Assembly: GCA_023249935.1 (NCBI GenBank)
Contig: JAHFBQ010000001.1
Location: 1-53,735, forward strand
Direction of reading: 5' to 3'
Source of the DNA: a bacterium
GTDB lineage: Bacteria; Babelota; Babeliae; Babelales; RVW-14
DNA length: 53,735 nt
The notes below the pieces were generated by a model. It was not told the DNA's origin, did not search any database, and worked only from the letters and a program-made list of their open reading frames with translations. Position numbers and translations under genes: made by a program. This document shows, in pieces, positions 13,717 to 45,909 of the stretch (the first letter of the stretch is position 1; every line of letters starts with the position of its first letter).

Positions 13717-13929
13717 TAATTCTCTCCATCTCAATGTGAAATTGCTTACTAACTGAAAGTTAGCAGGTTTTTCTAGGCATTCAAGTAGATTGTAATTGCT
13801 GAATATTTTGCCGGGTATATCTAAAACCCTTTACATCTGTAAAAGATGTGCAATCTTTGCTCTAGTAAAAAGAGGAAGGAGGCGCAGTGTGTTCTAAGAT
13901 GTAGTGCCATCATTAAAAAGCTTACTCAG

Positions 13930-18058: not shown

Positions 18059-18240
18059 CCATCATGCGGTGCTAGCAACAGTAATACTGACACGACAAAT
18101 ACACATGGTTCATGCGGCAATGGCAGCATGAGAGAATACGACCACCTCTCATCTTCACCAGACGAAGGCTTGCCAGAGCCAAAAACTCAACCCTGTGATT
18201 GGAGCCAACAGCCGCAGATCCCGGGATTTGATGAGGATGA
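18059..18240 (+). repeat. Pre-toxin handle, copy B (3' part only)
   Basis: Aligns to about 17214-17396 of copy A and encodes ...TDTTNTHGSCG...SSSPDEGLPEPKTQPCDWSQQPQIPGFDED. The frame is open from 18032, directly after the immunity-1 stop region. Confidence 0.85.
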
Positions 18241-18694
18241 AGAGGTTTGGGAGAAAGGTTCTCTGGAAATCGAAAAAGAACTTCCTAATAGCAAAGATAA
18301 TCAACAAGAGAGTGATAATAGTGGTTTGATTCCAGATGATAATAAGCTAGCTAGAGGGCGAGCTATAAATGAAAATGGAAGGGTTTTTGAGAAGTTTCTT
18401 GAAAAAGAACTTGGAGCTCGTGGAAGTTTTAGAGTCACAAGCAAAATAAACGGGACTCGAGAATTTGATGGAGCTGTAGGAAATGTTTGGTATGAGGCAA
18501 AAAGCGGCGAATATTGGAATTTATTGCTATCAAATGAGAAAAAGTTAGCAAAATTTAAATCTGATATGGGAAAAGGTTTGCAAATTACTCGCGAATATGG
18601 AGTAGCTTATCAACTTCACTCGAACACCCCTATTCCAGAAATTATAAAGAAATGGTTAATCAAAATGGAGATTCGATTTATTGAATGGTTATAG
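18128..18694 (+). CDS. Orphan toxin cassette 2: handle remnant fused to a PD-(D/E)xK-like (restriction-endonuclease-fold) candidate nuclease domain
   Basis: Homology to the big gene extends upstream of the ATG to 18032. Downstream of PGFDED comes a new domain containing REFDGAVGNVWYEAKSG (D-x8-E-x-K). Confidence 0.6.
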   Translation: MREYDHLSSSPDEGLPEPKTQPCDWSQQPQIPGFDEDEEVWEKGSLEIEKELPNSKDNQQESDNSGLIPDDNKLARGRAINENGRVFEKFLEKELGARGSFRVTSKINGTREFDGAVGNVWYEAKSGEYWNLLLSNEKKLAKFKSDMGKGLQITREYGVAYQLHSNTPIPEIIKKWLIKMEIRFIEWL

Positions 18695-18727
18695 TATTGT
18701 TCATCTCATGAAAATGAAAAGGTTGTT

Positions 18728-19210
18728 ATGTCAGTTTCAGCATCTTTTGATTTACGAGTTGTACGATCTTCAGGGAAAGAGCTTGCTTCTCAGATTGAGA
18801 TTATCAAAGCTCTAGCAAATTATGGATGGTCATTTTTTCGTGGCGAATATGTTTGCTATTTGCCTTATGGTGATAACGATAATTTTAATTGGACCGCTGA
18901 GATTATCAGTTTTGAATCGTTTTTAAAAATATTGGAACAAAAAGAAAAGAGATCCGAACTCATTGGAGTTTCAATGACATGGAAAAATTCGAACATTGAT
19001 GGAGAATTATTAATTTGGGGAGCTGAAGAGGCGAGAAAGAATAAAATTCACACACCAATATCATTCAATATGGCAGCAAATCGGAAACGATTTATTTCTC
19101 AAAATAATTATGAAATTACCGATGTTAATTGGTATATGGAAAAATTACTTCCTGCGCTTAATCAGAATGGTATGTATGTTGAGTATTTTTCTTATGAGGA
19201 ATATGACTAA
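18728..19210 (+). CDS. Putative immunity protein for orphan toxin 2
   Basis: 160-aa ORF 33 nt downstream of the orphan toxin, same strand, with AAAAGG before the ATG. The call rests on position only. Confidence 0.55.
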   Translation: MSVSASFDLRVVRSSGKELASQIEIIKALANYGWSFFRGEYVCYLPYGDNDNFNWTAEIISFESFLKILEQKEKRSELIGVSMTWKNSNIDGELLIWGAEEARKNKIHTPISFNMAANRKRFISQNNYEITDVNWYMEKLLPALNQNGMYVEYFSYEEYD

Positions 19211-19651
19211 CACTTTAAAACTCATCGCCACGACCGCGAGCTGCGCAGCCTAGACGATATTGTAGTGGTTTTCGAGAAAGATACAAAAACCATTTGCGGC
19301 ATTGATACGATCAATGAACTTGATCTACTCAATGAGTATCCATCAAGAAAGACACACCAATGTATTCCCGCCCAAGAGCCAGCGTCTTCTTCAGGTGTCT
19401 GTCTTCCTGAAAAAAATGCTGCCGAGCCTTCACGTGGCAGCGACGGCGACGATACTAACGCGACAAATATGCATGGTTCATGTGGCAGTACAAGAGAATG
19501 CGACCTCATCTCATCTTCACCAAACGAAGGATTGCCAGAGCCAAAAAATCAACCCTGTGGTTGGAGCAAACAGCCGCAGCTCCCAGGATTTGATGGGGAT
19601 GAGGAGGTGGGGAGCAATGTTGATCTGCAGCCAACGCTCTCTTTTGTATGA
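19211..19651 (+). pseudogene. Orphan handle copy C without a toxin domain (remnant)
   Basis: The frame is open directly after the immunity-2 stop: HFKTHRHDRELRSLDDIVVVFEKDTKTICGIDTINELDLL...WSKQPQLPGFDGDEEV, then 15 unrelated codons and a stop. There is no upstream start context apart from GTG 19265. Confidence 0.7.
19221..19605 (+). repeat. Pre-toxin handle, copy C
   Basis: See copy A. This is the longest and best-conserved duplicate. Confidence 0.9.
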
Positions 19652-20154
19652 GGAACTTTATGAACGGTGACTTTAAAGTCGCCGACCTCGATTGTTTGAC
19701 CTGGTGCTAGTTCAACAAATTTTACACATTTAGTTACCGTTGCTCCGGCAAATGCGAGATTAAGAAATGTTTTTACGTGATTTTCAATGCCTACTGGACC
19801 ATAAATAGTAAACGGGCTTGGTGCAGCAATATCTTCTCCAAGGTCATGGGACCACTGGTTTACATGTAACCACGTCAAAATATCTGGAAGGTCGCCAATA
19901 TGATCAAAATGAAAATGAGTATAAAAAGCGCCGTGTAGCGTGGTTACATCGACATGTTTTGTTGCTGCCTGCAGAATGCCAGGACCAGCATCGACAAAAA
20001 CATGTGTGTTGCCGGCGCTTACGAGGTTACCAGGAGCTTTGCGGTGTGGTTGTGGCATGCATGTGCCAGAACCAAGGATAGTAAGCTGCGCAGAATAAGC
20101 GGTTTGTTGTAGGGTGATAGAGAGTAGAGAAAAGAGTAGCTGCTTGATTGACAT
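19549..20154 (-). CDS. MBL-fold metallo-hydrolase with N-terminal signal-like sequence, apparently 3'-truncated (likely pseudogene)
   Basis: Motifs LTILGSGTCMP, HFHFDHIGD (HxHxDH) and VPHTKESVG (motif-3 His). The frame then runs into the reverse complement of handle copy C (...STLLPTSSSPSNPGSCGCLLQPQG*). The later Asp and His motifs are missing. Strong RBS AAGGGAGG. Confidence 0.6.
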   Translation of the reverse strand: MSIKQLLFSLLSITLQQTAYSAQLTILGSGTCMPQPHRKAPGNLVSAGNTHVFVDAGPGILQAATKHVDVTTLHGAFYTHFHFDHIGDLPDILTWLHVNQWSHDLGEDIAAPSPFTIYGPVGIENHVKTFLNLAFAGATVTKCVKFVELAPGQTIEVGDFKVTVHKVPHTKESVGCRSTLLPTSSSPSNPGSCGCLLQPQG

Positions 20155-20166
20155 GGGCGTCCTCCC

Positions 20167-20724
20167 TTAATCAAGTTCTTTATCTTCAATTTCTTCTTTA
20201 GTTGTAAGTCCACTGATAGCAAAAGCTCGTTTGAGAGCCATGGCTTCAGCAACTTTGAGGATCATAGCGTTGGTGTACTGCTGCCAGATTGGAGCATCTT
20301 TTTTGTAATATTCTTTTATGCTGACAAAGACGGTGGTTGCCTTGTCTCTGTCCTTACGAAATACGCTGCAATAGGCGCCTGACAGTTTGCTTTTATCAAA
20401 CAGCAGATGTTCCGGGCCATAAGAAATATGGAGGCTGCCATCATCTCGTTTGGTCAAAATGTCATTTTGATAAACAACATCACTCTCGATGCCATTAAAA
20501 TTTTCATTAAGATTGGCTATTTTTAGATAGCCATCTCTGCTAGTCAAAATCGTTGTTTTGCTGCCGTACTTAATAAAATAGATCTCTTTTTTTAACGGAT
20601 CTAGATTGTACTCTTTGCAGAGATACATAAAGGTCTTAAATTCGTCATCGGTGGCTCCAGGAGCCACCGATTTGCGTAGAAGTTCTTCGTTTTCATGAGC
20701 TGTTGTACCGGTTGTTTTTGCCAT
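20167..20724 (-). CDS. RecT/Bet-family single-strand annealing protein (short form)
   Basis: GATDDEFKTFMYLCKEYNLDPLKKEIYFI, SRDGYLKIA and ...IWQQYTNAMILKVAEAMALKRAFAISGLTTKEEI match my recollection of the phage Bet/RecT signature blocks. Confidence 0.7.
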   Translation of the reverse strand: MAKTTGTTAHENEELLRKSVAPGATDDEFKTFMYLCKEYNLDPLKKEIYFIKYGSKTTILTSRDGYLKIANLNENFNGIESDVVYQNDILTKRDDGSLHISYGPEHLLFDKSKLSGAYCSVFRKDRDKATTVFVSIKEYYKKDAPIWQQYTNAMILKVAEAMALKRAFAISGLTTKEEIEDKELD

Positions 20725-24597: not shown

Positions 24598-24686
24598 ACG
24601 CTCTCCTTGTGCTTTGTTGAGCCTTGAGCATACTAAGTTTGAGAGAGTATGTAACCAATCTAAATGTAAAAATTCTGGAGGCATTA
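24598..24686. promoter_or_regulatory. Divergent intergenic control region between the GT-C/kinase operon and the plus-strand GT-C pair
   Basis: 89-bp gap flanked by clear SD sequences on both strands (AAGGAG for 24597, GGAGG for 24687). Promoter hexamers not confidently assigned. Confidence 0.4.
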
Positions 24687-26285
24687 ATGAGGCTGCAAAA
24701 GCTGCAGATGTTGTTGGGGATTTTACTTTTCGTTATTGCTATGGGTGTACTCGCACTTCCCTACTATCCTTGGGGTTTCATGCGGGATGATTATGGATTT
24801 TTAGCTCACGCCGCTGCTTATGTTCACGGCTGGTCTGAGTTTTTTAAGCCGCACAATGTTGTCGACTTCGTCTATTCATCAGCAATCAATCCGCCATTTT
24901 CTTGGAGTGGGTCTTTTTACCGGCCAATTCAATTTATTCATTTTGCTCTCGAATATCTTTTTTTTGGTACCAATGCCTATGCGTATCTGATATGGATAGT
25001 GTTTATGCATGCTGGAATAGTAGTAAGCTTATTTAGCATAGGACGTACATTTTTTTCTGCGCAGCGAGCATTTTTTGTTGCTTTGATAATTCTTCTCCAT
25101 CCGATGCTTATGTTGTGGATGGGGTGCTTTACTCAGCAAATTTACATTATTGATGTGGTTTATTTTCTGAGTATAACAGCGCTTCTGAAAAAATTTTGCG
25201 ATACCAACCATTGGCGATGGTATATGGCATCATGCTTATTGTTTTTTGTAGCTCTTTTTGCAAAAGAAACGTTGATAACTTATCCAGGGTGGGTTTTTAT
25301 AGCTCTTATATGGTATCTATTACAATGTGATCAATTAAAAAAATGGTATAACCAAGTTTTTCCTGCACTAAAAATAGCTAGTGGATACGTATTTGTAGGC
25401 ATTTTCTATCTCGCCTCAAGGTATCTGATTTTTGCGGGAGCGACTGATGGTGTGATAAAATTTTTTGGCTTCTCAAGCTGGCAGGCATTTGTTGCCAGGC
25501 AATCTGAGCGATTTTTTGATCTCGTAACCTATGTATGCAACTATCTTTATATTGGTATGGTGCCTGGAGGTAACTGGTTGCGCAAAATGGTGCTGGTTAT
25601 GTTGATTATTGGTCTTCTTGCATATCCCTTTATTCGTAAACGACAACTCCTGTTACTTTTTTTTCTTGGGTTTTCAATGCTGGCCGTAACGTGGCCAGCT
25701 TGGTTACTTTACTACCATACACGCTATGCCTATGCTGGATTGATATTTTTGTATTTCATCTTCTTGTTTGCCATTGATTTTTATTTGAATAAATTTGTGA
25801 GGCTACGTCGCATATCACCATTACTAGGATTTTGCGTAGTTGCTGTGCTTGGATGCAATGCAATCAGTATGCAACGAATAAAAAATAGTGTGCTTTCTAC
25901 GGTGACGGGAGCGGCGCGTGAACTTGCTGTCCAGGTGCATGAAACGGTGCGGCCGCTTATCTTTATAGGGTTGCCGCACTGTTGGTTTGCATCGGGAGCA
26001 GGACAACTAGTTAAACTTTTCTATCCACAAGATAAGCGGTTAGTAGATGTTGGAATTTTGCTCTTTGGTGGCGAAGAGTTTGGGCTTTTAAGCCAACATG
26101 ATGTCCGTGTTGAACGACGAGGAGATCTGGTTGATATCGGTCTTGCTGCGAATGATAACCTTAGCTTCTTGAATCACCAAAAAGAAGAACGTTTTGTGAG
26201 TATAAAACTCTCCTGGGAGTTGTTGACAGATAATGCAATCATTATCACCTGGGATTATAAGCGACACGGATTTAGGATTATTTAA
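24687..26285 (+). CDS. GT-C-fold membrane glycosyltransferase-like protein, PMT/TMTC-like paralog (long form)
   Basis: Motifs WGFMRDDYGFL, FYRPIQF...FGTNAYAYL, FAKETL, YIGMVPGGNW and HTRYAYAG. The C-terminal domain ends IIITWDYKRHGFRII. Confidence 0.7.
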   Translation: MRLQKLQMLLGILLFVIAMGVLALPYYPWGFMRDDYGFLAHAAAYVHGWSEFFKPHNVVDFVYSSAINPPFSWSGSFYRPIQFIHFALEYLFFGTNAYAYLIWIVFMHAGIVVSLFSIGRTFFSAQRAFFVALIILLHPMLMLWMGCFTQQIYIIDVVYFLSITALLKKFCDTNHWRWYMASCLLFFVALFAKETLITYPGWVFIALIWYLLQCDQLKKWYNQVFPALKIASGYVFVGIFYLASRYLIFAGATDGVIKFFGFSSWQAFVARQSERFFDLVTYVCNYLYIGMVPGGNWLRKMVLVMLIIGLLAYPFIRKRQLLLLFFLGFSMLAVTWPAWLLYYHTRYAYAGLIFLYFIFLFAIDFYLNKFVRLRRISPLLGFCVVAVLGCNAISMQRIKNSVLSTVTGAARELAVQVHETVRPLIFIGLPHCWFASGAGQLVKLFYPQDKRLVDVGILLFGGEEFGLLSQHDVRVERRGDLVDIGLAANDNLSFLNHQKEERFVSIKLSWELLTDNAIIITWDYKRHGFRII

Positions 26286-26286
26286 T

Positions 26287-27897
26287 ATGAATAATATAAA
26301 ACAGAGAAATATGCTGATCGTAATGGTGACGGTGTTTCTTATTGCTTCCTTAGTTGTTCTTGCACTTCCCTATACCTCCTGGGGTTTTATTACCGATGAT
26401 TTTGGGCTTGTGTGGCATAGCAGGGTTGAATCGCTGTGCGAACTGGGTAAGTTTTTTACTGAGATGGGGCTGCATACGTTTATGCAACCAATAAATTACA
26501 TGCCGTCCGAACAATCGTTTTTTGCTGTATTGTACCGTCCGTTGCTTTATGTTTTTTATGGGATTCAATATTTATTGTTTGGTTTTTCTGCCTATGGGTA
26601 CATGATAGTTTCGGCATTACTCCATGGCATCAATGCTGTTCTCGTCTGGTTAATTTTTAGAAAATATTTTTCAAAAACAATCGCCGCACTTGGTGCCGGG
26701 TACTTCTTATTTCATCTTTCAATGCTCAATTGGTTTGGTTGGGTGACAGCACAACAACATTTGTTAGCGCTGTTTTTTTCGCTGCTAGTATTTATTTGTT
26801 ATCAGTGTTTTATAGATTCTCAGCGTAAAATATACCTATTTTCGGCAATAGCCCTAGTTGCTTGCTCGTTGTTAACTCGTGAGACACTCATCGTATTGCC
26901 TGTCTGGGTAGTTTTTGCGTTGGTGTGGCATTGGCGTACGGCACAACATAAGTTTCTTCTGCTTGTTACCGCTGCATTGCCTGTTGCAGGATATTTTTGC
27001 TGGCGTATTAGTCAATTTCCCCTCAAGGCATCGAACAGTGATTTAACGTGGGTTACTCGAGGGGGCTTTGCTTTTTTCACGTTCCTTAGAGAACAGTTTT
27101 TAAATTATGTTACGTGGCTTGTTGATTTGACCAATCTTGGGTTTGTTCCCGGCGGTAATCGATTGCGCAAAGGGACGTTGATCATCATGGTAGTCATGCT
27201 GCTTGCCTACTTGTTTTGGAACTGTCGCAAGAAATCAACGGTGTTGTTTTTGCTAGCAAGTACTATTGCTTTTGCTTGGCCTTCAGTGATTCGCTTTTAT
27301 ACCTCGCGTTTTATGTACGAGGCATTACCCTTTTTTATTGCAGCAATTTTGCTGCTCATTTTTGAAAATGATATTTCATTCAGGCCGAAAGCGTTGATCT
27401 TCGGTGCTCTGATAGCATTTAATGGCATGATGTTCCCAAATTTTTTATCAGCGCGTGAAAAAACGTTGAAAGCTATTAACATTGCAGTTCACGATCTTGT
27501 CATGCAGCTACCAGAAAATTCGAAGTCGATTGTTTTTGTTGGTCTACCGTTTGGATGGTTTTGTACAAGTGTTGCTCAGGCTTGCTACATGACTGGGTTG
27601 TCAACATCGGTGCCGGTGTACTATGACAAGCAGACTTTTGTGTGGAGTGAGCTCGAGCCAGCCGGTATTTCTCCTGAGATTCAGATTCGGCGGATAAGTA
27701 AGTCGGTATTGGAGGTCACTCTTAACAAGCCTGTAATATTCGCATTTGGTGATCGTGGTACAAACTTTGGCATCAAAGAGTGGCGAGACGAAGATGATGC
27801 GACCGTGCTTCATTGGGATATGATAAACGATCGCTTTGAAACGCCAGACGTGGTAATCACCTGGGATTATGAAAAAAACTGTTTTCGGCTGCTATAA
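26287..27897 (+). CDS. GT-C-fold membrane glycosyltransferase-like protein, PMT/TMTC-like paralog (long form)
   Basis: Motifs WGFITDDFGLV, LYRPLLY...FGFSAYGYM..LLHGIN, LTRETL, NLGFVPGGNR and TSRFMYEALPFF. The C-terminus is VVITWDYEKNCFRLL. ATG 26287 lies 1 nt after the upstream stop. Confidence 0.7.
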   Translation: MNNIKQRNMLIVMVTVFLIASLVVLALPYTSWGFITDDFGLVWHSRVESLCELGKFFTEMGLHTFMQPINYMPSEQSFFAVLYRPLLYVFYGIQYLLFGFSAYGYMIVSALLHGINAVLVWLIFRKYFSKTIAALGAGYFLFHLSMLNWFGWVTAQQHLLALFFSLLVFICYQCFIDSQRKIYLFSAIALVACSLLTRETLIVLPVWVVFALVWHWRTAQHKFLLLVTAALPVAGYFCWRISQFPLKASNSDLTWVTRGGFAFFTFLREQFLNYVTWLVDLTNLGFVPGGNRLRKGTLIIMVVMLLAYLFWNCRKKSTVLFLLASTIAFAWPSVIRFYTSRFMYEALPFFIAAILLLIFENDISFRPKALIFGALIAFNGMMFPNFLSAREKTLKAINIAVHDLVMQLPENSKSIVFVGLPFGWFCTSVAQACYMTGLSTSVPVYYDKQTFVWSELEPAGISPEIQIRRISKSVLEVTLNKPVIFAFGDRGTNFGIKEWRDEDDATVLHWDMINDRFETPDVVITWDYEKNCFRLL

Positions 27898-34599: not shown

Positions 34600-34643
34600 T
34601 CTTTGATAGGCAATTGGTTAGTGTTGTTGTGTCGCTCAGGAAT

Positions 34644-34734
34644 GTGCTTCGAGACAGCCCTGGCGAGCTTCCTCAGGATGAGCGGAGAGAAAAACCGCTC
34701 GTGCTGAGGAGGCCGCCAGGCCGTCTCGAAGCAC
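34644..34734. repeat. 91-nt GC-rich imperfect palindrome built from two inverted copies of a short repeat unit (CCGCTCATCCTGAGGA-N12-14-GTCTCGAAGCAC)
   Basis: Left arm GTGCTTCGAGACAGCCCTGGCGAGCTTCCTCAGGATGAGCGG. The reverse complement of the right arm is GTGCTTCGAGACGGCCTGGCGGCCTCCTCAGCACGAGCGG. The same unit recurs at 35531-35575. Confidence 0.8.
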
Positions 34735-35032
34735 AAGAGCGATTAATCGAGATCAAATGAAGATGCTCTAATTCTACGGAATGGTATTAGGACTCATAGC
34801 TTTTTATTTCAAAAAAGCCCGGTAGATGTTTTTTGAAGAAAATTGCAAAATAGTGAAAAAGTCATCATTTTGATACCTGTGGAGTTATGAAGCACTACCA
34901 GTTTTAATTCATATAGAAATTTATATATTGACTTTGATAAGCTGAATCTTGTAGCTTGAGGAGAATGAGAGCGGTTTTAGTGGTCTGAGTTGCTTGATTT
35001 AAGTTTTCATAAATTATAAAAAGGAGGTTCTT

Positions 35033-35374
35033 ATGAAGAAGTTAGCAATGATTCTTGGTTGGGTTTTTACTTTAGTTGTGGTGCAGATGTGTGAGGGTAC
35101 AGAAGTTCGTAATGATTCAGGATACAAGCTTGATATTTGCAGTTACAGTGAGCAGGATGGAAAAATGTCCAAAAGTGAATACTGCACTATAGAGGATGGT
35201 TTTACTCGACATGTTTCCGGTAATCGCCTGATTATACGTGGTGGCCAGAGTGGCCACTCCAGTGTTTTTATCGAGAGCGCAAACTATACCAGTACTTATG
35301 TAATCACATTTGAAAAAGAGTTAGGTGATGAAGGGTCAGGGACCCTTAGGTGTAGAAAAGAAACATCGGATTAG
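35033..35374 (+). CDS. Small secreted hypothetical protein
   Basis: Strong RBS AAAGGAGG 7 nt before the ATG. Signal-peptide-like MKKLAMILGWVFTLVVVQMCEG. 113 aa. Confidence 0.7.
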   Translation: MKKLAMILGWVFTLVVVQMCEGTEVRNDSGYKLDICSYSEQDGKMSKSEYCTIEDGFTRHVSGNRLIIRGGQSGHSSVFIESANYTSTYVITFEKELGDEGSGTLRCRKETSD

Positions 35375-35500
35375 CATTATCATCCAGCATACCGCGAATA
35401 ATCTATCATCCTCAATTTTCCAGGACGACCAGCCCTTTTTTGCGCATTAATCAGCCGGTTTTAATCGCTTTGCGGGTGCGTTATGACTTCTACGATTTCC

Positions 35501-35615
35501 CTGCTCATCCTGATGAGCAGCCCTTCGACACCGCTCATCCTGAGGAGTGACGAAGTCGCGTCTCGAAGGACATGTGCGGTGCTCAGGATAAACTTCAGCT
35601 ACGTCTCGAAGGATA
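35501..35615. repeat. Cluster of the same GC-rich repeat family (20-nt perfect palindrome CTGCTCATCCTGATGAGCAG plus two direct units ending GTCTCGAAGGA)
   Basis: CCGCTCATCCTGAGGAGTGACGAAGTCGCGTCTCGAAGGACAT (35531-35573) aligns with the reverse complement of 34644-34690. A second CGTCTCGAAGGA lies at 35602-35613. Confidence 0.8.
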
Positions 35616-36365
35616 TTCTTGAGCGGGCATTGTCATTGGCGAAGCCTGATTTGTAACTGGTGGCGGCACAACTTGGGGCGCTATTCCCGTTACTAAAGGA
35701 CCAGTCTCAGAGGTAGAGTATGCAATCTGAGTTAGGTTGAGTTTGGTGCGCAAGAAATTTTGGACAGCTGGAGCTACTTTTTCGGAGAGGTAAGAGCTAG
35801 CGATGCTCACTACCATGGTTATTGCAATATCAATTGCGTTATTGAGTATGACCTGCCCGATTGTAAGGATCGTTGGTATGAAGTTATGTACAAGAATAAG
35901 ATCTTCTGTAATAAAATAATTTTCATGCTTTTCGACGGAAATTCTGTGGATAGGAACTTTTATATTGAGCGGGGCCCAATTGATCTTTTTACAGAATTGA
36001 ACAGGTATTGGGCCTTTGATTGCGGAAAATACGGTGTCTTTGCCAGCCTCAAGATCGATTAATTTTGTCCAAGCGTTGCGGCTTGGGGAGAAGAAATATT
36101 GTTGTGCGTCGGCATGAATTTTAGTGTCGTTAACGGTAAGTTCATAGTATACAAATTCCTCAGTTGTCTCTTTCAACGTAATCTTCCCAGGAACTATTTT
36201 ACCCTCGGTACTCAGCGCAAATACCTCAAAGCCTTGGCACATATTTTGCATTGACTTCAAACCTGTCTGCCAAGTGGCAACAAGCGTGTCTGCGGTAAAA
36301 CCCTCGCCAAATAGAGGTGTAGTGAACAATATACATAGAAGTGAAAGCAAAATTTTTTTACTCAT
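35595..36365 (-). CDS. Secreted/membrane protein: signal peptide + degenerate Hint domain + hydrophobic helix + Pro-rich tail
   Basis: Signal MSKKILLSLLCILFTTPLFG. Hint blocks G-FTADTLVATWQTG..., KIHADAQQYFFSPSRNAWTKLIDLEAGKD and IHRISVEKHENYFITEDLILVHN. Then IPTILTIGQVILNNAIDIAITMVVSIA. Confidence 0.7.
   Translation of the reverse strand: MSKKILLSLLCILFTTPLFGEGFTADTLVATWQTGLKSMQNMCQGFEVFALSTEGKIVPGKITLKETTEEFVYYELTVNDTKIHADAQQYFFSPSRNAWTKLIDLEAGKDTVFSAIKGPIPVQFCKKINWAPLNIKVPIHRISVEKHENYFITEDLILVHNFIPTILTIGQVILNNAIDIAITMVVSIASSYLSEKVAPAVQNFLRTKLNLTQIAYSTSETGPLVTGIAPQVVPPPVTNQASPMTMPAQEYPSRRS
35883..36302 (-). other. Degenerate Hint domain (Gly1, terminal His-Asn)
   Basis: Same block order as 13993-14397. 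Confidence 0.6.
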
Positions 36366-36369
36366 GGGC

Positions 36370-36984
36370 TTACTCAGTAGAATTTTTTAGTTGTTTCTCT
36401 TGTGCCAACACCTCGTTGTATAGTTTTTTTATGAGTACATAAAATTGGGAATAATCTTTGGCATCTTTCTTAAAAAAGCTTTTGCATTTGTGATACATGT
36501 GATCGGTGTTAAAACCCTCTATGACGCGGGCTTTAGGGTTTTTCTCGAGTTCAAGCATGAGCGCCTTGATGTAATTGGTATAATCAGGGCACGTCTCTTT
36601 AATTGCATCGATAAAAGCTTGGTGTTTATATAATTCATGATCAGCAAGAATCTCTTTGTCAGCAGTTCTTGATACTTGGCGTTTGAGCGTTATTGTGGCA
36701 ATGAATTCCTCTTTAGAGGTTCCCTCTAATTCTTTTTGTCGTTGCTTAGCATCAATCTTATTTTTTGAAGGTCCTATAAGATGAAGTAATCCATCAACTG
36801 ATTTGCTGATAGCCACCGCCGCAAGGCTGCTTGCAAGAATAGTGAGCGGTTCAAATGCTTTGATGGTAGTGGTGTTAAAAACTGTAAGGCAGGTGATGGC
36901 AAAGATGCTTGTGTTGATACGTGTATTTACAGGATATATTTTTTTAAAAGCAGTATTCATCATCTTTTCAGATACCCCCAGCAT
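36370..36984 (-). CDS. Hypothetical membrane-anchored helical protein, upstream partner of the Hint protein
   Basis: The ORF ends 4 nt before the Hint gene ATG. There is one hydrophobic stretch (IFAITCLTVF...LTILASSLAAVAI) followed by charged helical sequence. The start is uncertain (36984, 36963 or 36960); the track start 37251 would overlap galE. Confidence 0.5.
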   Translation of the reverse strand: MLGVSEKMMNTAFKKIYPVNTRINTSIFAITCLTVFNTTTIKAFEPLTILASSLAAVAISKSVDGLLHLIGPSKNKIDAKQRQKELEGTSKEEFIATITLKRQVSRTADKEILADHELYKHQAFIDAIKETCPDYTNYIKALMLELEKNPKARVIEGFNTDHMYHKCKSFFKKDAKDYSQFYVLIKKLYNEVLAQEKQLKNSTE

Positions 36985-38204: not shown

Positions 38205-39734
38205 GTGATGAAAAAATTGTACGCGTTCTCATTACTTGTGATCGTGGCATTCGTGCTGAGGGCTGCTGTTTTTTGGGGGTATCTTGGCGAAGAAGACCGG
38301 TACTGGCAAATAGATTCAGCAACGTATCAAGCGCTTGCTCAAGAGCTCTCAGTCAATAATCGCTTTACTACGCCGGATGGCAATCCAGATGCCTATCGTG
38401 TTCCAGGCTATCCACTTTTTCTAGCAACGGTTTATAAAATGGTTGGTGTTAATCATCATGCTGCGCTTTGGGTGCAGATTATTCTGGCAAGTTTCATACC
38501 ATTACTTGTGTACTTTCTCGCTTGTGTTTTATTTCCTGCACGCCGTCGGATTGCGTGGGCTGCCGCCATTGTTACGACGATACATCTTGGGTATGTACTT
38601 TCTGCCGGTTTTATGATGACTGAGACGTTGTTTGTATTTTTGTTTTTATTATTTCTTATTCCCTTCTCGCGTGCAGTACTTCGTGCTGATACAGAGGGAG
38701 CTTGTGCAATCTCTGGAGGGTGTCCATCGTCGGCAGAATCAAGGCGGTTTTATGATATGATGGTGCTCAATTCGACGGCAGAAGGGCAGGCATTTACAGG
38801 ATTTTTTGATGATATTGTTGAGTCTGATATAGCAGCTGTCCGTTGCATGTGCCAGCCAGAAGATTCGGAGGGGTTGGATGTTTTCTTTGCTGGAATGATG
38901 CTTGGCTTGGCGTCCTTAGTGCGGCCTGTCGGTCATTATCTTATGGTAGTTGCAGTGCTGATTTTATTCTTTTCAGGGCATAGCCGCGTTAAACAATTCT
39001 TAGAATGTGGAGTGCTTGGGTTTGGCTGGTTCATCGTTGTTGGTGGCTGGTTGGTGCGTAATGCATTACTCTTTGGTCACCTTTTTTTTCATACGCTTCC
39101 TGGGGGGCATTTTCTGTACCTTTCAGCGGCACGTGTTGTAGCTGTTCAAGAAAATATCTCATACCAAGATGCACGTGCCGAATTGCGCGCCATTATTCAA
39201 GATCGTGAAGCTGCTGCGATTGAACAAAAAGGAGAAAGGCTATCTCGTATTGAAGTTAGCAAATTGCATGAGAGATTGGCACTAGAAACGTTTTGGGCTG
39301 CGCCTATGATAACGTTAAAATTATGGGTACAGGATATGTTTCGAACGACTTGCTCGTTGCATAGTGCTGAGCTTTTATATCTTGAATCTGGACGGCAGGG
39401 CATAGATTATTTTGCTACCAATAGGCCAGTAAGTAATTGGTTTAAGCGCTATCTTGAACCGCAAACGGATAAGTTTTGGCTGAAATGTTTGATCTGGGCT
39501 GAAATCGTTTTTAATGCACTGATGCTTTTTGGTTTAGCGTGGTTTTGCTATCGAGCATTACTTGGGGGTGTGCGTCGCATACCAAAAGTATTGTGGTTAG
39601 TATTACCGTTTATTCTCTTGTTTATTGTCATTGCACTTTCTGGTGGCTATGCTCGCATGCGGCTGCCGATGGAATTTTTGATAATTATTTTGGCATGTGC
39701 TAGTGTTCCCTGGTTGTACTACAAAAGAGCTTAA
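38205..39734 (+). CDS. GT-C-fold glycosyltransferase, ArnT/PMT_2 (GT39/GT83-like) type, with a Cys-rich loop insertion
   Basis: Motifs AYRVPGYPLFLA and LVRPVGH. Multi-pass. Paralog of 39734..41116 and 44593..45909. Confidence 0.65.
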   Translation: MMKKLYAFSLLVIVAFVLRAAVFWGYLGEEDRYWQIDSATYQALAQELSVNNRFTTPDGNPDAYRVPGYPLFLATVYKMVGVNHHAALWVQIILASFIPLLVYFLACVLFPARRRIAWAAAIVTTIHLGYVLSAGFMMTETLFVFLFLLFLIPFSRAVLRADTEGACAISGGCPSSAESRRFYDMMVLNSTAEGQAFTGFFDDIVESDIAAVRCMCQPEDSEGLDVFFAGMMLGLASLVRPVGHYLMVVAVLILFFSGHSRVKQFLECGVLGFGWFIVVGGWLVRNALLFGHLFFHTLPGGHFLYLSAARVVAVQENISYQDARAELRAIIQDREAAAIEQKGERLSRIEVSKLHERLALETFWAAPMITLKLWVQDMFRTTCSLHSAELLYLESGRQGIDYFATNRPVSNWFKRYLEPQTDKFWLKCLIWAEIVFNALMLFGLAWFCYRALLGGVRRIPKVLWLVLPFILLFIVIALSGGYARMRLPMEFLIIILACASVPWLYYKRA

Positions 39735-41116
39735 TGATTTGTTTAAAGATTAAAAAAGTTTTTCTTTTCTGCCTGTCCTTGGGCATTATCGCATTTATTG
39801 TCTATGCAGGATTTTATTTTCTCTTTCTGAGTAATAACCCCTGTGTATTAATGTATGACTCGGGTCATTACCATGAAGGAGCTATTGCGCTGATCCAGCA
39901 GGGTGCGTATGTAAGTGATTCTGGGGTGCCACTTTTTTACCGCCTCCCAGGGTATCCATTTTTTTTAGCAATTCTCTATTGGATAACTAATTATTCCGTG
40001 CGGGGAGCACTTCTTCTGCACATTGTTTTTGCCGCGATGTTGCCAATACTTATTTGGTTCGTTGTCTTGCGATTAACAGGGCGGCGACGGCTGGCTGGTT
40101 TGACAGCATGGTTAAGTGCGTGTGCACCAGCATTTATGATATTTTCTGGTCTTGTTATGAGTGAGATTTTATCGACGTGGCTGTTTCTTATATTTCTTAT
40201 TTTTGTATTGTGTGCTCTTGATGATCCCAATCGATTGCGTTTTTTTATTGGTAGCGGCATCTTTCTTGGTGTGTTGTCGCTTGTGCGGCCAGTTGGCCAC
40301 TTACTTGTGCCGTTTGCTGTAGGATTTATGATTATTTTTTTGGCTACATCATGGCGTCAAAGACTTTTATCCATAGTAATATTTGTTGTAAGTTGGGTGG
40401 CGGCAATTACTCCTTGGGTCTTACGCAATTTTATGCTTACTGGGCATCTGTTTTTTCATACACTGTCAGGCCCTCATTTTATTAACCATGTTGCGTTGCG
40501 GTTAGTTGCGGCAGGTGAACAGATTTCCTACAGCGATGCAAAAAGCAGCCTGTATGAACGGTTGAAAGAGCTTGAAATAGAAAATCGAGAAGTTCTTGGT
40601 CACGGCCTTTCTGAGATTGAACTTGCAAACTTATATGAACGCGAAACGATTTCTATCATTAAGCGTTATCCCGCGCAATTTTTGCATCTTACAGCGATTA
40701 ATTGCTTTAAAACCATGTTCTCATTGTATTCTAGCGAACTGCTTGTGATTGATGCCGGCGGGGCATTGCCATCGTATGATCGAACAGGATTAATGGTAAA
40801 GATAAAGCGTTTTTTAATGCCGACAGTGAACAATAGTTTGATTATTGGTGTTATTTATCTTGAGCTTGTATTGCTGCTTCTGACGATTGTTGGCGTATTG
40901 CTGGCGACTGTACGGTTCTGGCGTATCCTGTTCCAGCCGCGTATCATGTTAGTTGTGGGATTGATGGTTTTTTTTGTAGGCATAAGCTTGGCTTGTGGGT
41001 ATGCACGGTTGCGGATAGCTCTAGAGCCTTTTTATTTATTAGCAGCTGCCTATGCGCTCAACGAGCTGTCTCTTTGGTATCAACGCTCTGTATCGGGTCG
41101 GCTGTTGTCAAAGTAG
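39734..41116 (+). CDS. GT-C-fold glycosyltransferase, ArnT/PMT_2-like paralog
   Basis: Motifs FYRLPGYPFFLA, LVRPVGH, RNFMLTGHLFFHTL and YARLR. The start overlaps the upstream stop (TAATG). Confidence 0.65.
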   Translation: MICLKIKKVFLFCLSLGIIAFIVYAGFYFLFLSNNPCVLMYDSGHYHEGAIALIQQGAYVSDSGVPLFYRLPGYPFFLAILYWITNYSVRGALLLHIVFAAMLPILIWFVVLRLTGRRRLAGLTAWLSACAPAFMIFSGLVMSEILSTWLFLIFLIFVLCALDDPNRLRFFIGSGIFLGVLSLVRPVGHLLVPFAVGFMIIFLATSWRQRLLSIVIFVVSWVAAITPWVLRNFMLTGHLFFHTLSGPHFINHVALRLVAAGEQISYSDAKSSLYERLKELEIENREVLGHGLSEIELANLYERETISIIKRYPAQFLHLTAINCFKTMFSLYSSELLVIDAGGALPSYDRTGLMVKIKRFLMPTVNNSLIIGVIYLELVLLLLTIVGVLLATVRFWRILFQPRIMLVVGLMVFFVGISLACGYARLRIALEPFYLLAAAYALNELSLWYQRSVSGRLLSK

Positions 41117-42640: not shown

Positions 42641-44593
42641 ATGTGTGGGTTTGCCGGTTTTTGCCGACTTGAACGAACTGCTACAGCAATTGACACGCAA
42701 CTGTTGCAGTCGATGGCCAAAAAGCTTGTTCATCGTGGGCCTGATGACCAAGGTGTATGGCTCGATAGAAAATATGATGTTGGATTTGCAAACAGGCGGC
42801 TTTCAATCATAGATCTTTCTACTGCTGGGCAGATGCCTATGCATAGTAAAGATGGTTCCATTGTTATTACCTACAATGGTGAAATTTATAATTACAAAAA
42901 ATTACGAACAGAGCTAGAAGCCCTTGGGTATGTGTTTTGCTCAAACACCGATACCGAGGTAATTTTGCAAGGCTATGCGGCATGGGGTGATGGCGTATTG
43001 CATAAACTAGATGGCATATTTGCCTTTGCAATTTTCGATAAAGAGCGCAATGAACTTTTCATGGCGCGTGATCGTATTGGAGTAAAACCACTCTACTTTT
43101 CTTTGCAAGGTGGCTTTGTTAGTTTTGCATCAGAGATTAAGGCGCTTTGGGAATTGCCATGGATGCAGCAAGAAATATCACAACAGGCCATGTACCACTA
43201 CCTTACCTTTATGGTTACGCCAGCACCATACACCATATTTCGCGGTGTGTACAAATTGCCGGCAGGGTATTTCATGCACGTTGATGCGCAGCGAAACGTT
43301 ACCTTTTGTGAGTGGTACGATATTTTAAAGCAAACACCAGCCATTGCGCCGGCAGCGTGTATGGACACCTATGCAAGCATTGAAGTTATACATGATCTAC
43401 TACTTGAAGCGACCAAGAAGCGACTGATTGCCGATGTGCCAGTTGGCGCGTTTCTCTCTGGTGGGTTGGATTCAAGTTTAAACGTTGCTCTGATGGCGCA
43501 ATTTTTACCCAAGGTGCAGACATTTACCATAAGCTTTGCAGACGGCACAGAGCATGATGAACTTGCCTGGGCTCGGTTGGTTGCTCAACGTTTTGAGGCG
43601 GAGCATCATGAAATTACCATCACTGAGAAAGAAGCGGCGGAATTTTTTGAAACGATGATTTATCATCTTGATGAGCCGCTTGCCGATTGTGTTTGTATTC
43701 CTTTCTACTACGTTGCAAAGCTGGCTCGTGATGTTGGTATGAAGGTTGTGCAGGTTGGTGAGGGTGCTGATGAACTCTTCTTTGGGTATCCCGTTTATGC
43801 ACAACATGCCACCCTGCGTGATACCTGGTGGAATCCTGGCTTGCGGGCTGTGCCGTCATTTTTACGAAAACCTTTGAGTAGGGCTGCTGGAGCTTTTTTG
43901 AAAAAACGTCCTCATTATGCCGAGCTAATCGGTAACTGGGCGCAAGGCAGAGGCCATTTTTGGAGTGGGGCGATTGCGTTTAGTGAGCAACAAAAAGCGC
44001 TTATTCTTTCTTCTTCGTCCGTTCTTCAGCCGGAGCACGATGAGGTAGTTGCAAAAATTTATCCTGGCTTGCGACAGGAATTTGATAGCTATGCGATTAT
44101 TGATTATCACCGCCGGCGTCTTTTTGAAGCGCGGCCAAATGCTGATCTTGGTCAAGAAATTCTTTATCTTGAGCTAAAACATCGGTTGCCTGAGCTGCTG
44201 CTTATGAGAGCAGATAAAATGGCGATGGCTGCAAGTATTGAGGCTCGGGAACCGTATTTGGACTATCGACTTGTTGAATTTGCATTTCAAATCCCGCTTT
44301 CCATTAAGTATCAAAATCAGACCACAAAATTTTTGTTAAAACAGTTGGCGCGTGGCATTTTGCCCGATGTGATCATCGATAGGAAGAAGCAAGGTTTTGG
44401 GGCACCAACAGCTCGTTGGTACGAGCAAGGTAAGTTTTTCCCTCGTTATTATGATAAAGTTTCAACTGCTGCTTCGCCTGGAGCAAAGTTTTTTAAAACG
44501 GCGCAGCCAAGCCTCGAAAAAACATATCGTGCCGCGCAAGCACAATATGCTGTGCAGCGCTGGGTGCTGCAAAACCTTTGGGCAACGCGGTGA
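42641..44593 (+). CDS. Asparagine synthase (glutamine-hydrolysing)-family amidotransferase
   Basis: N-terminal MCGFAGF (Ntn Cys) and PP-loop SGGLDSS. AAGGGAG lies 6 nt before ATG 42641. Confidence 0.8.
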   Translation: MCGFAGFCRLERTATAIDTQLLQSMAKKLVHRGPDDQGVWLDRKYDVGFANRRLSIIDLSTAGQMPMHSKDGSIVITYNGEIYNYKKLRTELEALGYVFCSNTDTEVILQGYAAWGDGVLHKLDGIFAFAIFDKERNELFMARDRIGVKPLYFSLQGGFVSFASEIKALWELPWMQQEISQQAMYHYLTFMVTPAPYTIFRGVYKLPAGYFMHVDAQRNVTFCEWYDILKQTPAIAPAACMDTYASIEVIHDLLLEATKKRLIADVPVGAFLSGGLDSSLNVALMAQFLPKVQTFTISFADGTEHDELAWARLVAQRFEAEHHEITITEKEAAEFFETMIYHLDEPLADCVCIPFYYVAKLARDVGMKVVQVGEGADELFFGYPVYAQHATLRDTWWNPGLRAVPSFLRKPLSRAAGAFLKKRPHYAELIGNWAQGRGHFWSGAIAFSEQQKALILSSSSVLQPEHDEVVAKIYPGLRQEFDSYAIIDYHRRRLFEARPNADLGQEILYLELKHRLPELLLMRADKMAMAASIEAREPYLDYRLVEFAFQIPLSIKYQNQTTKFLLKQLARGILPDVIIDRKKQGFGAPTARWYEQGKFFPRYYDKVSTAASPGAKFFKTAQPSLEKTYRAAQAQYAVQRWVLQNLWATR

Positions 44594-45909
44594 TGAGAAT
44601 GCGTGAGTATGGTTGGCTTGCGTGTGGGGGTGCATTTTTTTTTCTTATGTCGTGGATACTTTTTTATCAAGTCCCGCCTACTAAAAACCACCAAGATATT
44701 GACTCCGGGGCCTATGTTCAGGCAGCAAGTTTTTTACTTGAGGATGGTTCATTTGAACGGCTTGTCACTACGCCGTACTATGGTCTTGGTTACCCTCTGT
44801 TCCTTGCTGGATTGAAAAAGATTGGGAGCAATTCTGTCGGTTTTATCGTTGCAATACAGGTTCTGTTGGCGTGGTTGGTTGCCCTGCTTGCCTGGAAGAT
44901 AGCCGACAACTTTTTTGGTCGTCGTGCTGCATGGATAGCTTATGTGCTTGCTCTTACTAATGTTGGCTTATTGGTGTTTGCTCAATTTTTATTAACCGAA
45001 ATAGTATTGGTACTGCTGTTAACACTTTTTGTTGAGCGTATGATCAGTTTTCTTGGCAATAAAAAACTAAGCACTCTTGTGTTGGCTGGGTTTTTTCTAG
45101 GATTGAGCTGCATTGTTAAGGCTGTGGCGGTGATGTTTGTTGTCCCTCTTGTATTTTTTGTAAGTGTTGCTTTTTGGAAAAATTGTTCTGTAATAAAAAA
45201 TATCTTTGGTTTATTAATTGCATTTGCGTTGCCATATGGCTTATACCAGGTGCACAACAAGGTAATGCTTGCTCCACACGGGCACTCGATGTTTACTGTC
45301 AATCTTTATGGTTGGTACTATCCACACCTACGAGCACAGATTAATGGGACAACGTCTGATGAAGAAAAAATATTTGTTCGGCAACAAGTTGCATCGCAAG
45401 AATTGCCTGCAATGCTGGTGCATGATGTTTTAGCCTATCCAGGGAAAGCATGCATTGCGCTAGGAAAAAATTGGATAAAAACATTATTGGGATTGTATAC
45501 AAGTAATGTCAAATTACTGATTGATACCCAATTTGTGTCCGGCGGTCTGTCATTTTTTAATTTAAAAGGGACGCTCTGGCAGCGTTTGTGGGGTTATATT
45601 GCCGGCAAGACTGCACACGTGTGGATTGGCGTGCTTGGTGTTGTAGAGGCATTTTTTCTCTTAATGCGCTACATCCTTGTTCCGTGTGGGCTCTGGGTAT
45701 TGTGTACACGTCGTCGTTGGGTTGAGCTTGTTTTTGTAGTCTTATATCTGGGGTATTTTATTGGCATCACTGGGCATGATGGCTGCGCTCGGTTCCGTTT
45801 GATGATCGATGTGCTTGTAGTTGTTTTAGCTGGTGGTGGGCTTGCTGTACTGAGTAAAAGCTGGTTGCCCAATGTTGGATTGCTAAAGGGTACTAGAAAA
45901 AAAGGATAA
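44593..45909 (+). CDS. GT-C-fold glycosyltransferase, ArnT/PMT_2-like paralog
   Basis: TPYYGLGYPLFLAG. Multi-pass. ATG 44593 overlaps the asnB-like stop (TGATG). Confidence 0.6.
   Translation: MRMREYGWLACGGAFFFLMSWILFYQVPPTKNHQDIDSGAYVQAASFLLEDGSFERLVTTPYYGLGYPLFLAGLKKIGSNSVGFIVAIQVLLAWLVALLAWKIADNFFGRRAAWIAYVLALTNVGLLVFAQFLLTEIVLVLLLTLFVERMISFLGNKKLSTLVLAGFFLGLSCIVKAVAVMFVVPLVFFVSVAFWKNCSVIKNIFGLLIAFALPYGLYQVHNKVMLAPHGHSMFTVNLYGWYYPHLRAQINGTTSDEEKIFVRQQVASQELPAMLVHDVLAYPGKACIALGKNWIKTLLGLYTSNVKLLIDTQFVSGGLSFFNLKGTLWQRLWGYIAGKTAHVWIGVLGVVEAFFLLMRYILVPCGLWVLCTRRRWVELVFVVLYLGYFIGITGHDGCARFRLMIDVLVVVLAGGGLAVLSKSWLPNVGLLKGTRKKG

Follow-up and report, generated by a model that had tools for sequence, protein, structure and literature searches.

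In Sec-dependent polymorphic toxins, HINT serves as a toxin-releasing peptidase and is placed just before the toxin domain, with ZU5 and PrsW named as N-terminal peptidases (Zhang et al. 2012, PMC3482391). A review covering the work of Amitai 2003 and Dassa 2004 describes A-type bacterial intein-like (BIL) domains as cleaving their C-terminus via a terminal Asn, without a nucleophile at position +1 (PMC7765530). In Neisseria, the gene upstream of the toxin encodes MafA, a dedicated export factor, and some MafB proteins contain a Hint domain (PMC7738311). We analyzed a 256-aa Hint protein of a bacterium of the order Babelales (phylum Babelota), encoded in a 53,735-nt stretch of DNA, hereafter the window (positions 1 to 53,735 of contig JAHFBQ010000001.1, assembly GCA_023249935.1), which derives from a groundwater metagenome. 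This protein is probably a toxin-less member of a Sec-exported polymorphic toxin family that carries the Hint domain at the mature N-terminus and would shed it by Asn cyclisation; a partner protein encoded immediately upstream most likely acts on or with the remaining fragment.

The open reading frame (ORF) and its parts are as follows.

35595-36365, minus strand: the 256-aa ORF, with leader, Hint domain, hydrophobic stretch, and Pro-rich tail
36300-36365, minus strand: signal peptide, residues 1-22, MSKKILLSLLCILFTTPLFGEG, placed by family statistics
35883-36299, minus strand: Hint domain (PT-HINT, A-type BIL-like), residues 23-161, placed by fold and residue patterns
35883-35888, minus strand: His160-Asn161 (cat aac), the Asn-cyclisation site predicted from the sequence, with the scissile bond between Asn161 and Phe162
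35736-35882, minus strand: conserved region after His-Asn, residues 162-210, comprising the hydrophobic stretch FIPTILTIGQVILNNAIDIAITMVVSIASSYL with a conserved Asp and then SEKVAPAVQNFLRTKL
35595-35735, minus strand: Pro-rich tail, residues 211-256 and the stop codon, delimited by substitution rates, a break in homology, and overlap with a repeat
36366-36369, minus strand: 4-nt spacer GCCC between the TAA stop of the partner gene and the ATG of the Hint gene

The leader, the Hint domain running from Gly22 to His160-Asn161, the hydrophobic stretch, and the Pro-rich tail could all be read from the translation, as the first-pass annotation had described them. The Hint-like blocks follow one another in the order FTADTLVATW, KIHADAQQYFF, WTKLIDLEAGKD, and HENYFITEDLILVHN, the last being followed by F. 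Block A is (G)FTADTLVAT, in which Gly22 occupies the position of the Hint nucleophile; block B is degenerate, with D86-A-Q-Q89 instead of T..H; block F is KHENYF, where Glu148 stands in place of the His of the wider family; and block G is LILVHN. Of the residues that mark A-type BIL and PT-HINT domains, Cys/Ser1 and the block-B Thr-x-x-His are absent, and the terminal His-Asn is present. Signal peptidase I is predicted to cut after Gly22 or after Gly20, and cleavage between Asn161 and Phe162 would be expected by analogy with intein and BIL chemistry. The hydrophobic stretch covers residues 162-~200, and 19-mer Kyte-Doolittle values are 1.5-1.9 over residues 155-191.

Only two homologs of the ORF were found among 5.8 billion clustered proteins, with 80% and 61% identity. 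The Hint assignment of the first-pass annotation stood in profile searches of the PDB and fell short in Pfam. The best PDB match of a profile built from the three orthologs was 2LWY, a BIL domain of C. thermocellum (E 9.8e-5); residues 23-161 aligned with residues 5-138 of the 138-residue chain, both ending in ...VLVHN, and therefore the whole domain is spanned. Pfam gave nothing above threshold for the 256-aa ORF, and the sub-threshold hits were all from the Hint clan. PT-HINT (PF07591) did not match the ORF itself and was a sub-threshold hit for one ortholog (P0002 or P0003, E 0.0049), and the members P0013 and P0011 passed the threshold of this family. AlphaFold2 modelling with the 3-ortholog alignment gave a predicted local distance difference test (pLDDT) score of 34; with a 115-sequence family alignment, it exceeded 94 for residues 21-160. 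In a Foldseek search, the latter model matched BIL2 best (E 7e-12), followed by the Ssp DnaB mini-intein (E 4e-10), and 2LWY had a target-normalised TM-score of 0.91 at a root-mean-square deviation of 1.6 A. The first 50 listed matches were all BILs, inteins, or Hedgehog Hint domains, and 66 matches had E<=1e-3. The Hint assignment can be considered secure.

An exhaustive search with the profile of the 256-aa ORF returned 217 representatives of 50% identity clusters at E<=1e-3, giving a family of at least 217 clusters at this level of identity. Thus, the further heads with signal peptide, Hint domain, and helix for which the first-pass annotation had proposed to search do exist, and Ntox37, Ntox21, Ntox35, and ColE3-type cargo is fused behind them. 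Family members are mostly 160-720 aa long and match the profile at residues 1-~165. Their layout is stereotyped and includes a signal peptide of about 22 aa, a PT-HINT domain starting with Gly1, an HN pair that does not vary, a hydrophobic region some 39 aa long, and a variable cargo. Among GTDB genomes, 11 true loci were recovered with a hand-made degenerate DNA pattern for EGFxAGTLVKT, and a scan of these genomes with the ortholog alignment found no relative.

Position 1 was occupied by Gly in 107 of 113 N-terminal heads (Ser in 4, Cys in 2), and by Cys in 14 of 22 internal hits. The leader had a median length of 22 residues, and Gly1 was followed by Phe in 99/106 heads. The residues preceding Gly1 (G/A/S at position -2 in 69/106, I/L/V at position -4) fit a signal-peptidase I site directly after Gly or two residues earlier. 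All 115 non-gapped Gly1 heads kept His-Asn, and the residue at +1 was Phe or another hydrophobic one; Cys, Ser, or Thr was very rare there (Cys in 2 and Thr in 2 of the 113 heads). In block B, the Cys/Ser1 domains had T/S in 20/20 and His in 15/20 cases, whereas the Gly1 domains had A38/D28/S24/T7 at the first position and Q71/H44 at the second. The block-F His was retained in 87/119 Gly1 heads. The hydrophobic region after His-Asn, with a median length of 39 aa, reached a 19-mer Kyte-Doolittle value of at least 1.6 in 75% of heads; for the 19-mer following His-Asn, the median was 1.77 in N-terminal heads, and the value was below 0 in every Cys1 hit scored.

Heads were found in metagenome-assembled genomes (MAGs) labelled Candidatus Babeliales, uncultured Pseudomonadota, and Candidatus Berkiella, in unclassified bacteria, and in one MAG labelled Methanobacteriota archaeon. 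Babeliales and Berkiella are lineages associated with protists. The sequence from the MAG labelled as an archaeon (L013) has the typical features of a bacterial family member, namely a signal peptide and an EGFIAGT head scoring 186 bits, and its contig was probably mis-binned. Two adjacent heads lie in tandem at L011 (6789-7998), and at least three family copies (L005, L007, and L012) are located on one 1.52-Mb chromosome; as expected, such tandem and multiple copies fit a multi-copy toxin arsenal.

Pfam PT-HINT was matched by 103 of 115 family members (best E 3e-21). The tails of 29 of the 115 matched toxin domains, namely Ntox37 (10), Ntox21 (9), Ntox35 (4), ColE3-type Cytotoxic (4), Ntox24 (1), and DUF4258 (1). 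Variable C-terminal toxin domains of RNase type on one conserved type of head, the mark of polymorphic toxins, are therefore present at the level of the family. At the loci examined, small leaderless ORFs lie directly 3' of the toxin-bearing heads, and these are immunity-like, putative immunity genes. Close relatives of the 256-aa protein belong to this toxin-bearing part of the family: P0007 bears Ntox35 (E 1e-14), and P0006, P0008, and P0009 are similar. In P0006-P0009, the helix region is followed by a Pro-rich linker and then by the toxin domain, whereas P0001-P0003 end within the linker. As claimed in the first-pass annotation, the 256-aa ORF has no toxin: Pfam detected no toxin domain in it, and tblastn found no toxin or immunity remnant 3' of the gene.

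Comparison with the ortholog at locus L001 gave ratios of nonsynonymous to synonymous substitution rates (dN/dS) of 0.087 in the Hint domain, 0.078 over residues 162-210, and 0.94 over residues 211-256, with dS of about 0.6 for the leader, Hint, and helix region. Purifying selection acts strongly on the head and the helix region, and the tail evolves neutrally. DNA homology with L001 stops at 35684 (codon ~227) and resumes at 34609. Intact toxin-less orthologs were found in at least three genomes (61-80% identity), and further short forms are P0004 and P0005/L017. The toxins of the relatives, the homology break, and the dN/dS pattern together indicate a truncated, toxin-less copy in which the head and helix have been kept by selection. 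The DNA downstream of the truncated gene contains the following features.

34633-35625: variable cassette 3' of the Hint gene, with two inverted palindromic repeats of about 110 nt (34633-34741 and 35498-35625)
35033-35374, plus strand: 113-aa ORF inside the cassette, flanked by the repeats; its product has a signal peptide and belongs to no known family

The repeat copy at 35498-35625 covers the last ~10 codons and the stop of the 256-aa ORF, and in place of an immunity gene the downstream DNA is this repeat-flanked cassette with its convergent ORF. L001 carries a Gp49/HTH_37 toxin-antitoxin pair at the same site, and this different cargo makes the cassette site look like an insertion hot spot. 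Metatranscriptome contigs overlap the Hint gene at a word depth of 3-6; over 34997-35780, the word depth was 39 and 23. A scan for promoters and terminators found sites no more often than in shuffled sequence and none on the strand of the Hint gene. At the locus of the second ortholog, L002, an AbiEii/AbiEi-like pair (375-1870) is located directly upstream of the partner-Hint operon, which is another sign of a variable neighbourhood rich in mobile elements.

The partner gene located upstream of the Hint gene has the following structure.

36370-36984, minus strand: partner gene, 204 aa and stop, with alternative starts at Met8 or Met9
about 36856-36984, minus strand: partner leader ending in ...TIKA
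36772-36855, minus strand: conserved, moderately hydrophobic segment FEPLTILASSLAAVAISKSVDGLLHLIG
36373-36771, minus strand: helical domain with invariant HELY, GF, and FY motifs

The spacing noted in the first-pass annotation was confirmed, since the TAA of 36370-36984 is followed by GCCC and then by the ATG of the Hint gene, and the two-gene arrangement recurs in other genomes. Of 8 loci examined, 7 have the partner directly 5' of a Hint gene of the subfamily, which may or may not carry a toxin; the loci with this order include L001, L002, L015, L017/L018, L019, and L021. The genes overlap by 8 nt or are separated by 4, 8, or, in one of two L019 gene calls, 82 nt. The partner is restricted to one subfamily, and other members of the head family have no such gene. 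Its own family consists of 25 clusters, in which leaders are canonical throughout (ending in ...VKA, ...INA, or ...AHG before the cut) and are followed by the segment (I/F)(E/D)P..(I/M)..GALV..G(I/V)SKA(I/V)DG..YLFGPSKS. With dN/dS of 0.117 relative to L001, the partner is under purifying selection as well. Searches of Pfam, NCBIfam, PDB, PADLOC, and PHROGs with the partner returned nothing credible. At L020 (5001-5609) the partner stands alone, 113 nt before trpR, in a locus syntenic with the window (an epimerase on one side and the Trp repressor on the other), and the Hint gene was either lost from this locus or never inserted there.

Several assignments for the partner were rejected. It is not an immunity protein, since it lies upstream, bears a leader, and accompanies Hint genes that have different cargos or no cargo at all; moreover, the immunity-like ORFs in L015 are located 3' of the toxin. 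Homology of its hydrophobic segment to the segment following His-Asn was not significant by hhalign (E 0.12), and the remaining resemblance consists of F-x-P at the start and a conserved Asp. The TDH.YHK motif was rejected as a metal site because it is absent from the P0171-P0177 clade, whose members are still paired with Hint genes.

The family can be compared with the described systems in more than one respect. It shares the domain family of the PT-HINT polymorphic toxins, and the relatives likewise have signal peptides, interchangeable Ntox and ColE3 domains, downstream immunity-like genes, and orphan cassettes. Unlike in canonical PT-HINT toxins, Hint is here the first domain after the leader and lies in a 1292-aa toxin of the same window more than 1,000 aa upstream of the toxin domain; Cys1 is replaced by Gly, block B has degenerated, His-Asn is always followed by about 39 aa of hydrophobic sequence, and the 256-aa ORF lacks both toxin and immunity gene. 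The likeness to A-type BILs includes the best PDB sequence match (2LWY), the C-terminal His-Asn, the lack of a +1 nucleophile, and occurrence in variable secreted proteins (PMC7765530). However, A-type BILs retain Cys1 and are able to splice or to cleave at both ends, whereas the Gly1 heads have neither Cys1 nor an N-extein, and therefore only the C-terminal reaction is possible in this family. Hedgehog and Hog Hint domains, which lack a terminal His-Asn and in which a sterol attacks the thioester formed at Cys1, are more remote, since the 256-aa ORF has Gly1 and ends in His-Asn, and a Hedgehog domain was only a distant Foldseek match (4e-6). Among engineered mini-inteins that cleave at the C-terminus, Cys1Ala variants, in which Asn cyclisation is the sole cleavage reaction left, are used for tag removal. 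The heads show the same pattern, with nucleophile 1 gone and the terminal His-Asn kept, but are natural, stand behind a signal peptide, and have a hydrophobic segment at +1. Gene order is like that of MafA/MafB/MafI (accessory gene, signal-peptide toxin, immunity genes, and orphan cassettes), although the sequences are unrelated: Pfam finds neither DUF1020 nor MafA in either protein, and the partner is predicted to be helical and has no lipobox and no known homologs. Literature searches found no description of a Gly1 N-terminal HINT head, which represents a large and apparently undescribed class of secreted bacterial polymorphic toxins.

The following sequence of events is proposed. Sec would export the Hint domain, and signal peptidase would cut 0-2 residues before the first Hint strand, so that no N-extein would remain. 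With Cys1 and the block-B T..H lost and His-Asn kept, cleavage is predicted at the C-terminal junction only. The only reaction left to the Hint domain would then be cyclisation of Asn161, breaking the bond to Phe162, so that a 15-kDa Hint cap would be shed and the new fragment would begin with the hydrophobic segment. This segment would stay in or enter the membrane together with its cargo, which is a toxin in the relatives and a disordered linker here. The partner would most likely act on or with the helix fragment, in its handling, assembly, or export; the last role may be likened, by analogy, to that of mafA upstream of mafB.

A number of observations weigh against this reading. With two candidate positions, the signal-peptidase site of the 256-aa ORF is ambiguous, the single sequence has nothing above threshold in Pfam, and AlphaFold2 models the helix region after His-Asn at a pLDDT of only 48-80. 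Autocleavage of the 256-aa protein is predicted from its residues, and the partner-linked subfamily has Glu, Gly, or Gln in place of the block-F His that assists Asn cyclisation; consequently, autocleavage may be slow, conditional, or lost there. The charge flanking the far end of the hydrophobic region is net positive in 55 and net negative in 29 heads, a weak bias with which the cargo could be cytoplasmic, behind a stop-transfer anchor, or periplasmic, behind a hairpin. The role of the partner is suggested by gene linkage, and this linkage has exceptions: subfamily locus L016 lacks the partner and L020 has the partner without a Hint gene. The RNA evidence comes from unstranded contigs, which do not prove that the two genes are co-transcribed.

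The same substitutions could mean that the Hint domain is not catalytic at all and serves a type I membrane protein as an inert ectodomain in the periplasm or as a binding module, in which case His-Asn would be structural and the intact protein would work with the partner as a membrane complex. Gly instead of Cys1, D..Q instead of T..H in block B, and, in this subfamily, Glu148 instead of the block-F His agree with this explanation, and the hydrophobic region could serve as the stop-transfer anchor. We nevertheless consider it unlikely because His-Asn is found in 115/115 Gly1 heads while the N-terminal catalytic residues have drifted, which is the pattern that selection for C-terminal cleavage alone would give. 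Moreover, the block-F His persists in 87/119 heads of the wider family, and toxin-bearing relatives need a release step, a role given to HINT (PMC3482391). The missing toxin domain, present in close relatives, raises the question of whether the gene is a functionless, decaying remnant of a toxin gene that lost its 3' end to inserted cassettes, and this would also explain the tail dN/dS of 0.94, the break in L001 homology at codon ~227, the repeat element over the stop codon, and the lack of an immunity gene on the 3' side. The truncation stands, but such a pseudogene is improbable given the low dN/dS (0.08-0.09, with dS about 0.6) across leader, Hint domain, and helix region, the intact toxin-less orthologs of 61-80% identity in at least three genomes together with the short forms P0004 and P0005/L017, purifying selection on the partner, and the RNA contigs overlapping the Hint gene. 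A genuine intein or a splicing BIL that ligates its flanks would likewise have the Hint fold and the terminal His-Asn, but the chance of this is negligible, since it is contradicted by the sequence: position 1 is Gly, with no Cys/Ser/Thr, the +1 residue is Phe, the signal peptide is the only N-terminal flank, and the domain is not inserted in a conserved host protein.

A further interpretation, possible but rather doubtful, places the two proteins in a membrane module in which Hint is a self-removing cap, toxins are optional cargo, and the segment starting with Phe inserts and pairs with the hydrophobic N-terminus of the partner. Export and Asn cyclisation would bare a Phe-first hydrophobic N-terminus with a conserved buried Asp, and signal peptidase would make the bare N-terminus of the partner, which holds a conserved Lys-x-x-Asp. 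The toxin-less copies under purifying selection would then keep the primary function of the module. If true, a Hint domain would here have given rise to a natural membrane-insertion device that is activated by cleavage.

Another protein of the window, the 1292-aa toxin, was reported in the first-pass annotation to have the same N-terminal architecture as the 256-aa ORF. Its locus includes the following features.

13846-17724, plus strand: 1292-aa toxin ORF, with the likely start Met29 at 13930
13930-14481, plus strand: head of the 1292-aa toxin, with leader MKYTRYLLLIVLLFNNNQMYAG, Hint domain from Gly50 to His183-Asn184, and hydrophobic stretch PLVLAVPLTLAAVELAPQLINLCMML
17476-17706, plus strand: toxin domain at the C-terminus of the 1292-aa protein, sharing 74% identity with the P0016 tail
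18128-19210, plus strand: two ORFs after the toxin, 18128-18694 and 18728-19210 (188 and 160 aa), with homologs in L015

Aligning the two heads with each other, pairwise and by profile, failed to reveal the relationship: BLASTP of the 256-aa ORF against the toxin (E 0.43) and hhalign of the two heads (E 0.14, aligning block G only) were not significant, and a search with the toxin head found no homolog. The shared architecture was recovered with the hidden Markov model (HMM) of 115 related heads, which scored the 1292-aa toxin at 87.8-91 bits, from the leader through the Hint domain into the hydrophobic stretch. The toxin head alone matched 2LWY as its best PDB hit, end to end, at E 0.013, and the Met29 start gives the toxin a 22-residue leader ending in Gly. 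Taken together, the HMM score, the 2LWY match, and the leader indicate that the two heads are homologous via intermediate sequences, through which alone the homology appears. The HMM matched no third ORF in the window. The pair had been ascribed to a lineage-specific module rather than chance; the homologous module is real, but it is spread across Babeliales, Pseudomonadota, Berkiella, and others.

The two ORFs following the toxin (18128-18694 and 18728-19210) are likely immunity genes for it, judging by their homologs, which are orphan ORFs 3' of an Ntox35 toxin in L015 (E 2e-18 and 1e-48); neither matched Pfam or NCBIfam. The C-terminal ~77 aa of the toxin belong to no Pfam family and yet recur, with 74% identity, on a different head, that of P0016. 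The toxin and the downstream ORFs probably form a toxin/immunity pair of unknown type. Since P0016 has the helix type of the subfamily of the 256-aa ORF and the tail of the 1292-aa toxin (74% identity over its last 77 aa), and since homologs of the two ORFs lie behind the L015 toxin, toxin and immunity modules are evidently shuffled between this subfamily and the 1292-aa toxin. Genes for a RecT-family recombinase (20167-20724) and a metallo-beta-lactamase-fold protein (19549-20154), both on the minus strand, adjoin the putative immunity genes, and this pair may represent a recombination module of phage type close to the variable toxin locus.

The remaining part of the window contains at least four paralogous genes for PMT_2-type (dolichyl-phosphate-mannose-like) glycosyltransferases (26233-27897, 38205-39734, 39734-41116, and 44578-45909). 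An ORF without Pfam hits (24624-26285) overlaps the first of them, and genes for a GalE-like epimerase, asparagine synthase, and nucleotidyl-transferases are found nearby. Altogether, this looks like a large envelope-glycosylation region. Irrespective of gene orientation, the GC skew stays positive (0.04-0.17) across all 2-kb windows, and the GC content is 37-46%.

The head family represents a stereotyped use of HINT unlike that of a release peptidase located beside the toxin and, as predicted from its residues, would be a natural Hint domain cleaving the C-terminal junction only. It has hundreds of members in uncultured bacteria and provides a test case for the processing and membrane transit of Sec-dependent toxins without a large stalk, as well as a catalogue of cargo domains; several of these, that of the 1292-aa toxin among them, match no known family. 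A function maintained by selection is also indicated for the toxin-less copies and their novel partner.

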